Notes under the pieces: model-generated
The model's input: the letters and a program-made list of their open reading frames with translations, nothing else
The model's database searches: none
Told to the model about the DNA's origin: nothing
Position numbers and translations under genes: made by a program
Sequence record: NC_106514.1
Source of the DNA: Escherichia phage vB_EcoS_ESCO40
Direction: 5' to 3' (one strand)
Length of the DNA stretch: 64,000 bases
Shown: positions 24,633-27,366 of the stretch, one piece after another
How the letters are laid out: every line of letters starts with the position of its first letter
Position numbering within the stretch: the stretch's first letter is position 1

Positions 24633-25075
24633 TTAAAATTAAATTAACTCACCCAGATTGTATGCCTAAGATTGGTTCCGAAGATGCCGCAGGTATGGAT
24701 CTGCGAGCATTCTTTGGTACAAACCCTGCCGCAGATTTACGTGCTATTGCGCCAGGCAAATCCCTAATGATTGACACCGGTGTCGCGGTAGAAATTCCGC
24801 GAGGTTGGTTCGGTTTGGTGGTTCCTCGCAGCTCTTTAGGTAAGCGCCATTTGATGATTGCAAACACCGCTGGAGTGATCGACTCAGACTATCGTGGTAC
24901 TATTAAGATGAACCTTTATAACTACGGTTCTGAAATTCAAACTCTGGAGAATTTTGAAAGACTTTGCCAGTTAGTGGTACTACCGCATTACTCAACCCAT
25001 AATTTTAAAATCGTTGATGAACTAGGGGAGACTGATCGTGGAGAGGGTGGATTTGGAAGTTCAGGAAGCAAATAA
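24629..25075 (+). CDS. dut: dUTPase
   Basis: AAGMDL, VVPRSSLG and GVIDSDYRG dUTPase motifs. Confidence 0.85.
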   Translation: MIKIKLTHPDCMPKIGSEDAAGMDLRAFFGTNPAADLRAIAPGKSLMIDTGVAVEIPRGWFGLVVPRSSLGKRHLMIANTAGVIDSDYRGTIKMNLYNYGSEIQTLENFERLCQLVVLPHYSTHNFKIVDELGETDRGEGGFGSSGSK

Positions 25076-25301
25076 TTTTACTGATCCTAATATGGTAGGT
25101 ATTGATACTAATGTGTCAACTTATCAGACTAAAACTACAGAACCGGAAAGATTTGTACTAAAAACAGACAAAGAAGGTAATGTTACTTTCTGGGATCCTG
25201 AAGGTTTTGTAGAGCTTTGTACTAATACAGATAATGAGCAGTTAAAATTACTATTAACTATTTATAATCTTGGTATTATAGAAGGTTGTAGAAGAGAATA
25301 G
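25038..25301 (+). CDS. hypothetical protein (87 aa)
   Basis: ORF overlapping the dUTPase 3' end; weak start signals. Confidence 0.3.
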   Translation: MERVDLEVQEANNFTDPNMVGIDTNVSTYQTKTTEPERFVLKTDKEGNVTFWDPEGFVELCTNTDNEQLKLLLTIYNLGIIEGCRRE

Positions 25302-25307
25302 TAGAGA

Positions 25308-25338
25308 AAACCCCAGTGGACAAAATCCGCTGGGGTTT
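25308..25338. terminator. bidirectional terminator between convergent early and late units
   Basis: AAACCCCAG/CTGGGGTTT stem with 13-nt loop; T-rich flank on both strands. Confidence 0.6.
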
Positions 25339-25686
25339 CTTATTATGATATTAGCTTATTAGCTAATATTTTTAGTTTGTCCCTATTTGAGTGGGTTATT
25401 TAGATGTTTTTAGTGCCACTATCCCTGCCCCCAAATCCTACGTTTGTTTACTTAGATACTAGACAAATCCTAGTAGACCACAAGGGTTGGGGCCTACTAA
25501 AGGCCTATCTCTATCCTACCAGTATCACGAGTGTCCTTTTAAGCTCCATTGCTATATTTGGTATATTAAGATGCTATACCCTCCCGTTGGCAATAACACC
25601 GAAGTTGGTAGGACTATGTACGCACAACATCAGAATAGGGTAGAAAATTCTACATCTGCAGAATTTTTAGAGGAATCCAGGTGGCG

Positions 25687-27366
25687 TTACTTCTGTACCA
25701 TTAGATTGACCAGTTCTCTGAGTTCAGCCAATTCAGCTTTCATCTCAGCCAACTCCCTATCCTGCTCCTGTACCACTGCCACGATATCTGCTAGTATCGC
25801 ACGATCGTTCAGGTTGAGCATTCCAGACATGCTACCGGAAAACGCGTAAATCTCATCCGCTTCTTTAGCTTCCTGAGCAACAAATCCGCGATCTTTGCGC
25901 CCATCTGATAGCCATTCAAACTCACGCGCAACAAGGCGGTTAATACGGTCACGTGGGGTGTTGCCTTCCGTATTGGTGGTGTCTGTGATCTTGTCTTTGA
26001 GGCGACGATCTGAACCGCCAGGTTGGATAAGGCCTAAATTAGTGTCGATACATGAATTTTCCCATTTAAACGCCCAATATTTATTACCTCCTACGGCTCT
26101 ATTAATATTTAGTTGTACGGCTCTAAATTGTGTATTACCTTCACGTATGCCACCAAATTCCCACCTATCGTCATACCAATGACCACGAATAATATTTACA
26201 TAGGTATTACCTTCGCTACTAGGAGTAACATTGAAAAACTCGATGGCATTGGGTTCTCCTGTATTACCTACGAAAAAACCACCTCTCCCTGGTACTGTTA
26301 CCACACCAATTGAGTTAACAGACATTACCTCCCGCAACGTACCTTCTTGTCCTTTTACTTCTAGTGCAGAATAAAAATCTGTCCCAAAAAGAATCTTGGT
26401 ACGCAATTGTGAGACATATGCTTCCGCGCCAGCAATATTGTATACAGATCGCACAGCACCGCCATAGGCCATTACGCCGTTAGATGGACTTGTCGCATCA
26501 CCATTAATAACACTCCACGAGGTATTCGCAGCCACGAACCCCCCAGAAGCACGGATTACCCAGACGCCGACAAAGTTTCGTGTAAGGATTTCGTCCCTTG
26601 ATGCCCCGTAGATAGGGCTTGAGCGTGAGGCGTCAAAATTTAATGTATTATAGCGCCCAGCTACTGCAATATTTCCTGTACTTGGAATTGCATCCCCATC
26701 CCCATTAGGAAAAATCGCATTATCAACAAAGAAAGCACCGCTAGCAGCAGAACCAAATACCTGAGCGTAACTACCCCCTGAGTAACTAGGAACAGCAGCA
26801 GTAATATTAGGCGCAGCGGATTCAAATAGCTGGCCATTTGCACCACTATTCCCACCATCACCACGACCGTAGAGAGCACGTATTGATCCTTGTTGCACAC
26901 CGTTCCTATCTGGCACACGGAAAGTAGTTGTACCGTCACCCAATGAGTATCTGCCACGCTGAAATTTATCTGCTAACCAAACTGAATCATCTATAGCCCC
27001 AACCATTTGTGCATACGCCCAAAGTTCAGGCCAGTCAGCCCTATTAAGAAGCTGTCCGTCAGAAACGACTTCGTATGGTTGAATATACGCACGACTATCT
27101 CGAAGGTGGAAATCACCAACACCGTAATTCATAACACCATTCATAGTGGGACCGACTGTACCGGTGTTAATCTTATTCTCTACCCAACGTTTAGTTGCGG
27201 CATCATAGTCCCCAACAGGATCCCCCGCAAGAGGGGTGGACCCAATAGGACGCACATTTAACCATGCTGCTGCACGGTCTGCAAGATCGGATAAATTGTT
27301 GTTTTTATCCATCTTTTCGTCTTTAAGTTTTGTAATATCCTGGGGGATATTAGTATAAGTAGTCAT
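25687..27366 (-). CDS. L-shaped tail fibre protein, distal part, with C-terminal intramolecular chaperone domain
   Basis: Gly/Ser/Asn-rich fibre-like sequence; C-terminal GGSDRRLKDKI...AELAELRELV resembles the autocleaving S74-type chaperone domain. Confidence 0.7.
   Translation of the reverse strand: MTTYTNIPQDITKLKDEKMDKNNNLSDLADRAAAWLNVRPIGSTPLAGDPVGDYDAATKRWVENKINTGTVGPTMNGVMNYGVGDFHLRDSRAYIQPYEVVSDGQLLNRADWPELWAYAQMVGAIDDSVWLADKFQRGRYSLGDGTTTFRVPDRNGVQQGSIRALYGRGDGGNSGANGQLFESAAPNITAAVPSYSGGSYAQVFGSAASGAFFVDNAIFPNGDGDAIPSTGNIAVAGRYNTLNFDASRSSPIYGASRDEILTRNFVGVWVIRASGGFVAANTSWSVINGDATSPSNGVMAYGGAVRSVYNIAGAEAYVSQLRTKILFGTDFYSALEVKGQEGTLREVMSVNSIGVVTVPGRGGFFVGNTGEPNAIEFFNVTPSSEGNTYVNIIRGHWYDDRWEFGGIREGNTQFRAVQLNINRAVGGNKYWAFKWENSCIDTNLGLIQPGGSDRRLKDKITDTTNTEGNTPRDRINRLVAREFEWLSDGRKDRGFVAQEAKEADEIYAFSGSMSGMLNLNDRAILADIVAVVQEQDRELAEMKAELAELRELVNLMVQK

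Follow-up and report, generated by a model that had tools for sequence, protein, structure and literature searches.

Tail-Fibre Exchange as the Probable Origin of a Long Gap Behind a Known Bidirectional Terminator in a T5-Like Phage

Introduction

In the genome of Escherichia phage vB_EcoS_ESCO40, the rightward early genes and the leftward late genes run towards each other and stop on either side of a long intergenic gap, which raises the question of whether so much DNA between two converging gene blocks serves a regulatory purpose or has simply been left there. The stretch analyzed here, referred to as the window, comprises 64,000 nucleotides of sequence record NC_106514.1. An initial annotation of the window, made from the letters alone, described an early/late convergence zone with a bidirectional terminator, a short palindrome, a perfect 8-bp stem, and about 350 bp of non-coding sequence, and proposed that the gap may hold transcription-collision control elements or an unannotated small RNA. 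The present analysis favors an ordinary explanation, with a probability of roughly three in four: the gap would consist of a known bidirectional terminator plus ~340 bp of passive scars from repeated swaps of the 3' end of the neighboring tail-fibre gene. This reading is built on the homologies and the gene order of the region, on searches that found no coding or RNA signals, and on a near-neutral level of divergence.

The Phage and the Borders of the Gap

A 2.4-kb query taken around the gap matched 405 phage records, almost exclusively T5-like (Tequintavirus), and the best matches were to WP85 (92.9%), AKFV33 (91.6%), and NBEco002 (87.9%). Judged by this similarity, the window is a Tequintavirus (T5-like) genome with AKFV33, WP85, and NBEco002 as its nearest relatives. 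Two genes border the gap:

25038-25301, + strand: T5.132 homologue, last rightward early gene and left border of the gap (ORF list; Pfam DUF7369, E 1.9e-28)
25687-27366, - strand: 559-aa LtfB-like lateral tail fibre carrying a Peptidase_S74 chaperone at its C-terminus, bounding the gap on the right (ORF list; Pfam)

Annotated homologues of the left-hand ORF are found in AKFV33, WP85, SelmaRatti, and T5. It closes a rightward run of genes homologous to the T5 early genes D13, D14, D15 (flap endonuclease), dut (dUTPase), and T5.132, and the fibre ORF heads a long run of leftward late (tail) genes. The GC skew switches sign at ~25350-25400, and within the gap the skew matches the - strand type. 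Both the ORF list and the gene order confirm the ends that had been given for the early genes (25301) and the late genes (25687), and the positions of all three hairpins proved correct on re-check. The gap itself is also real and measures 385 bp; it is not strictly ORF-free, in that one 79-codon ORF, which is not conserved, lies inside it on the + strand (25404-25643).

A Conserved Two-Way Terminator

The first element of the gap, counted from the early genes, is also its best-defined one:

25308-25338, both strands: bidirectional intrinsic terminator common to T5-like phages (fold energies, T-rich tails, T5/AKFV33 annotation)

The stem has 13-bp arms that include seven G-C pairs and enclose a 5-nt loop. 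Folding energies are -24.6 (+ strand) and -21.2 kcal/mol (- strand), with z-scores of -7.8 and -5.1, respectively, and none of 200 shuffled sequences equalled it. T-rich tails lie 3' of the stem on both strands, reading GGGGTTTCTTATTAT on the + strand and GGGGTTTTCTCTACT on the - strand; a simple terminator scan flagged the element on the + strand only. The hairpin thereby unites the three features by which a bidirectional intrinsic terminator may be known, namely a stable GC-rich stem-loop, a U tract on both sides, and a conserved position between convergent genes.

Existing annotation points the same way. The T5 record (NC_005859 81641-81680) places an [quoted passage not shown] between T5.132 and ltf, and the AKFV33 record carries terminators on both strands at the homologous hairpin. 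Together with the gene order, these annotations uphold the description of the region as an early/late convergence zone with a bidirectional terminator. Like its counterpart in the window, the T5 terminator directly follows the T5.132 homologue, has a near-identical sequence (AAAACCCCAGTGGACAAAATCC[A/G]CTGGGGTTTC), and shows the same loop orientation; the sole difference is a T-G pair at one stem position of the window, which gives a C-A mismatch in the - strand RNA. Likewise, most of the 235 phage records that match the gap of another phage do so within the terminator stretch only. On these homologies, the hairpin is identified as an already-known bidirectional intrinsic terminator, conserved in hundreds of T5-like genomes, and it is the sole element of the gap under clear constraint.

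The terminator loop and inner stem (25318-25328) exist in two mirror-image forms among T5-like phages. The form GGACAAAATCC occurs in the window, WP85, T5, and HMD-P4, and the form GGATTTTGTCC in AKFV33, NBEco002, PNJ1902, K36, K16, and SelmaRatti. The loop of a second hairpin in the gap (25644-25667) is flipped too, in NBEco002. Flipped loops of this kind look like the outcome of template switching that inverted the spacer of a palindrome, and the two orientations are harmless to a terminator that works in both directions.

Gap Length Follows the Fibre Allele

The fibre gene on the right border is a mosaic. Its N-terminal part is common to SelmaRatti, and its C-terminal, receptor-binding part is shared only with AKFV33, WP85, and NBEco002. 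When aligned to the SelmaRatti fibre (L003 2546-4294), the first ~190 residues are identical and the remainder diverges, for an overall identity of 57%. Among the four relatives, synonymous divergence is sharply unequal between the N- and C-terminal halves of the fibre, with WP85-AKFV33 values of 0.46 and 0.06 at four-fold sites, which suggests that several independent recombination breakpoints may lie inside the gene. Remnants of the present fibre protein or of the SelmaRatti fibre were sought in the gap by tblastn, and none were found.

Across the T5-like phages compared, the spacing between the T5.132 homologue and the stop codon of the fibre gene changes with the fibre allele:

SelmaRatti, Kenya-K16, HMD-P4: 40-44 bp
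T5: 227 bp
AKFV33, WP85, NBEco002, window: 375-385 bp
PNJ1902: 415 bp
K36: 484 bp

Most relatives cease to match the window at ~25365-25377. Beyond that point, the stretch 25378-25686 has relatives only in WP85 (95%), AKFV33 (89.5%), and NBEco002 (86%), which are also the phages whose fibres have the window's C-terminal receptor-binding part. No further copies of the gap were found in E. coli genomes, plasmids, IMG/VR, JGI metagenomes, or GTDB genomes beyond AKFV33 and NBEco002 themselves. The orf134-orf135 region of AKFV33 (HQ665011 79749-80123) is homologous to the window's gap from end to end (89.5%) and is flanked by the same genes; it differs in its flipped terminator loop, in the deletion of 8 bp of the palindrome, in two single-base deletions, and in a divergent patch corresponding to window positions 25605-25625.

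Layers Between the Terminator and the Fibre Gene

Past the terminator, the gap can be divided into four stretches of apparently different origin:

25343-25381, - strand: remains of the final codons and the stop (DKLKILANKLIS-stop) of an older lateral tail-fibre allele, holding the palindrome 25348-25369 (HMD-P4 homology)
25382-25455 (also given from 25379), no strand assigned: block A, non-coding (~70-75% identity to PNJ1902 and Kenya-K36/K38/K42/K45)
25456-25643, no strand assigned: blocks B and C, ~190 bp of orphan non-coding DNA (only in the four phages that share the receptor-binding domain)
25644-25667, - strand: AT-rich hairpin, 19 nt past the tail-fibre stop codon (homology to contig L008; kept in four phages)

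The short palindrome of the first stretch has perfect 9-bp arms (25348-25356 and 25361-25369) and folds at -9.9 and -8.4 kcal/mol on the two strands, with z about -4. When read on the - strand, 25381-25343 gives DKLKILANKLIS-stop. In HMD-P4, where the tail-fibre/chaperone CDS is intact, the 3' terminus of that gene (…ELKILVNKLISQ-stop) agrees with the palindrome region at 34 of 40 nt. Such a match to an intact gene end shows the palindrome to be the fossil of a former fibre gene end (…KLKILANKLIS-stop), palindromic by happenstance. The stop codon of the HMD-P4 gene adjoins the same terminator, and the fossil lies at an equal distance from it; the stretch thus shows what a pseudogene relic should show, i.e., likeness to an intact fibre end and the same place relative to the terminator. 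At the protein level, tblastn matches the window to HMD-P4 at 9 of 12 aa, and a longer fossil, KLE[A/T]EVKELKILANKLIS-stop, is present in PNJ1902 and K36, where 14-15 of 18 aa equal those of HMD-P4 (15 of 18 in K36). The palindrome is short of 8 bp in AKFV33 and degenerate in NBEco002.

Block A, the next stretch, is carried by phages (PNJ1902 and Kenya-K36/K38/K42/K45) with fibres unlike that of the window, and 21-22 nt present in the PNJ1902 and K36 copies are missing from the window. In K36, block A continues in frame with the fibre-end fossil for 41 open codons, with no Pfam signal. Block A probably represents older material from the fibre pseudogene to which 25343-25381 also belongs. The further idea that it represents the start of a Peptidase_S74 domain was set aside, given that Pfam is silent and that a tblastn match to the terminal peptide of K16 reached an E-value of only 0.14 in a tiny database.

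The orphan DNA at 25456-25643 has no relative beyond the four phages and no donor in any collection searched. It includes a hairpin at 25471-25499 with 13-bp arms and two mismatches, which is not followed by a T tract on either strand. In NBEco002, CC/GG-to-TT/AA changes turn this hairpin into a fully paired 15-bp stem (-18.6 kcal/mol, z -7.4); it is also better formed in WP85, and degraded in AKFV33. Two sets of long inverted repeats, 25397-25408/25626-25637 and 25514-25521/25606-25613, were considered as mobile-element ends or RNA helices and rejected, as they are not conserved in AKFV33. Also rejected was a direct repeat, AGAATAGTAGAGAAAA (25295) and AGAATAGGGTAGAAAA (25632), as the mark of a duplication or target site; by our own estimate, about two such 13-of-16 matches are expected by chance per 500 A-rich bases.

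Closest to the fibre gene lies the AT-rich hairpin that had been described as an 8-bp stem near 25650. Its arms are AAAATTCT (25644-25651) and AGAATTTT (25660-25667), and ten pairs are possible on the - strand, where it folds at -8.8 kcal/mol (z -3.5; equalled by 2 of 200 shuffles). On the + strand, the energy is -5.8 kcal/mol (z -1.2; equalled by 24 of 200). Taken by itself, the stem is near chance level, yet it is kept in all four phages and has a homologue elsewhere. Specifically, contig L008 (Logan DRR569831, 48.5 kb), which comes from a phage or prophage that is richer in GC and unrelated to this one, encodes a fibre with a receptor-binding domain 82% identical to that of the window. Behind the stop codon, the alignment of L008 with the window carries on for another 56 nt, at 40 of 56 identical positions versus 86% over the last 300 coding nucleotides, and homology is then lost. 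The L008 trailer is a canonical terminator (AAAAACCCUGC-AAAU-GCGGGGUUUUUU, -15.2 kcal/mol). Relative to it, the window's stem shows two C-G pairs changed to U-A, plus two one-sided, compatible changes, and no disruptive ones; pairing is kept at the cost of C-G pairs, and the stem is therefore preserved yet weak. The hairpin is best read as an AT-decayed homologue of the GC-rich L008 terminator, carried in with the donor module, and it probably acts as a weak proximal terminator or 3' stabilizer. L008 itself would be a candidate relative of the donor lineage. Behind its terminator lies a possible relic, an ORF of 70 aa in which the start motif of Peptidase_S74 is weakly matched (E 0.12). Further ORFs on the same strand follow the fibre gene (L008 1-1660), and one of these is hydrophobic.

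The Same Process in Related Phages

Two relatives offer views of comparable gaps. The 227-bp gap of T5 occupies the same place as that of the window, holds an older fibre-end fossil (of K16 type), and has a second hairpin right behind the ltf stop. It differs in that its sequence past the terminator is not homologous to the window's gap and in that it has an annotated rightward promoter (T5.134) and a GC-rich proximal hairpin, both of which are lacking in the window. The T5 gap (NC_005859; L011 4690-4790, - strand) carries DFKKQIADLTQVVNSLLASKV-stop, 17 of 20 aa of which equal the intact C-terminus of the Kenya-K16 fibre. Going by this match, the gap of T5, the annotated promoter of the antisense ORF T5.134 included, is itself identifiable as a fossil of a K16-type fibre 3' end.

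A further example is PNJ1902, where the right half of the gap (L009 2659-2861) is 83-88% identical to DNA of Seuratvirus phages of ~60 kb (for SeppeHuegi, L012 2501-2707). In these phages, the matching sequence sits right behind the lateral tail-fibre gene and overlaps the next gene (bas24_0023). The match indicates an apparent cross-family transfer of a fibre end plus its flank. The PNJ1902/SeppeHuegi exchange is modular in kind: a foreign fibre 3' end and some donor flank have been set down upstream of the resident terminator. In the window, the counterpart of this donor flank would be the donor-type terminator hairpin and the orphan DNA; unlike in PNJ1902, no donor of 25456-25643 turned up in the collections searched. 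A literature search returned nothing relevant on T5 transcriptome or 3'-end maps, nor on fibre remnants.

A Model for the Growth of the Gap

These comparisons suggest a simple history. The receptor-binding and chaperone 3' end of the lateral fibre gene would have been replaced repeatedly, and each swap may have introduced a fresh gene end along with a bit of the donor's downstream DNA, pushing the old gene end towards the terminator. The gap DNA would have accumulated because fibre-end recombination anchors downstream on the conserved terminator/early-gene side and lands at varying points. Counted from the terminator, the predicted layers are the HMD-P4-type fossil, the older block A, ~190 bp of orphan DNA, and the donor's weakened A-T hairpin. 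The resulting ~340 bp would then be no more than the untranslated trailer of the late tail-fibre operon, passively accumulated.

With regard to transcription, the strong hairpin at 25308-25338 is expected to stop early transcripts arriving from the left and late fibre transcripts arriving from the right. The latter would first meet the AT-rich hairpin, 19 nt past their stop codon, and those that read through this weak element would end at the strong one, with the scars in between having no function of their own.

If this model holds, the main lesson is one of annotation, in that a long gap of this type is not to be read as a regulatory locus. It also follows that the spacer between fibre gene and terminator in T5-like phages may serve as a layered record of past fibre alleles, donor flanks, and host-range swaps, and that it may mark the downstream recombination boundary of fibre exchange. 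The downstream boundary of fibre exchange is already exploited by phage engineers.

Could the Gap Encode Something Else?

The proposal of collision-control elements or an unannotated small RNA is without support from Rfam, promoter, interior-fold, and divergence analyses, and the palindrome and the 8-bp stem are explained by descent. A search of the gap for tRNA and tmRNA genes found none. Rfam searches at permissive E-values returned no family at its gathering score, and every weak match fell on the terminator hairpin, including the top-scoring STnc370 (30.3 bits; gathering 54) and His_leader (28.7 bits; gathering 49). The gap as a whole folds with a z of -3.4 on both strands. This excess was considered as a sign of hidden structure and discarded, since it is due to the terminator and the palindrome and is gone when both are left out; for the interior (25378-25686), z is 0.0 on the + strand and -1.1 on the - strand, and the mean of 72 control windows from the same genome is -1.07. 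Thus, none of the hallmarks of a small-RNA gene, i.e., its own promoter or processing site, excess stability or covariation, or a match to an RNA family, was found in the gap, and the sole terminator on offer is the shared one. The T5 nick consensus GCGC is likewise absent from the gap, as judged by reading the sequence.

Divergence gives a similar picture. The p-distance of the gap is 0.05-0.21, versus 0.06-0.34 at four-fold sites in the flanking genes, a comparison that is confounded by mosaic ancestry. Relative to the four-fold sites of the fibre C-terminus, the gap is about two-fold less diverged in five of six pairs and more diverged in the WP85-AKFV33 pair. Divergence is thus roughly at the level of four-fold sites, which speaks for no strong constraint and leaves room for a mild one.

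Among the alternatives, the one that survives best casts the gap as an extended, structured 3' UTR of the late fibre mRNA, possibly processed to a stable 3'-UTR-derived small RNA. Bounded by the leaky AT-rich hairpin on one side and the strong terminator on the other, this RNA would regulate phage or host genes. Consistent with this alternative are the frequent position of the gap below four-fold-site divergence, its - strand type of GC skew, the compensatory changes in hairpin 25471-25499 of NBEco002, and a long-range helix (25415-25419/25681-25685) in which one-sided changes are G-U compatible on the - strand only. RNAalifold on the four sequences, moreover, yields three or four double-change pairs versus ~1.5 in shuffles, with four on the - strand (6 of 500 shuffles), a covariation that is weak and strongly biased in that the consensus structure was fitted to the same four related sequences. 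Several of the helices so predicted are broken in AKFV33, the interior - strand fold is no better than the genome-wide average, Rfam is without a match, and the sequence occurs in four phages only, being missing from relatives with other fibres, some of which manage with a gap of 40-44 bp. On balance, a 3'-UTR-derived RNA is unlikely. A related version, in which the ~300-nt trailer would be reached by read-through and act as a functional RNA (either a 3'-UTR small RNA or a stability/processing element at 25471-25499), moving with the receptor-binding module and tuning fibre or host genes, must be considered decidedly unlikely.

Alternatively, a rightward promoter in the gap, like that of T5.134, might drive an antisense RNA over the 3' end of the fibre gene and so modulate its expression. 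The idea gains some appeal from the + strand promoter annotated at the equivalent place in T5, but the T5 gap is not homologous to that of the window. In all, two promoters were found in the gap versus 4.8 expected from shuffles, and neither scored better than shuffled sequence. The best promoter-like site, TGGACA-18-TATTAT (25317-25346), matches at 10 of 12 positions, but it lies within the terminator, and its -35 box is destroyed in the flipped-loop relatives. Two overlapping extended -10-like motifs (TGCTATATT and TGGTATATT; 25550-25567) face the fibre gene, but their -35 boxes are poor and one motif is lost in NBEco002. An antisense promoter is therefore very improbable, and passive accumulation of fibre-end scars remains the preferred reading of the gap.

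Finally, the 79-codon ORF (25404-25643), whose product would be hydrophobic, might be thought a real small protein gene. It is intact in the window and in WP85, and NBEco002 keeps the frame save for one stop codon. In two of the four phages, though, the ORF is broken, by two single-base deletions (frameshifts) in AKFV33 and by that nonsense codon in NBEco002, and the window and NBEco002 disagree at 20 of 79 residues. The 79-aa product has no homologue among 5.8 billion proteins and belongs to no PHROG or Pfam family, and tblastn returns the same four phages only; a frame kept in relatives and homologues elsewhere, the usual marks of a coding sequence, are thus both lacking. Given also that the ORF lies downstream of a strong terminator with neither a convincing promoter nor a Shine-Dalgarno sequence, that it straddles two blocks of different history, and that an open frame of 79 codons is expected by chance about once per five such gaps (our own estimate), a functional gene here is scarcely credible. 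The WP85 record annotates the ORF as a 101-aa hypothetical protein in the gap (L002 2604-2909), overlapping the end of the fibre gene, and this annotation, by the same comparisons, is very likely a spurious gene call.
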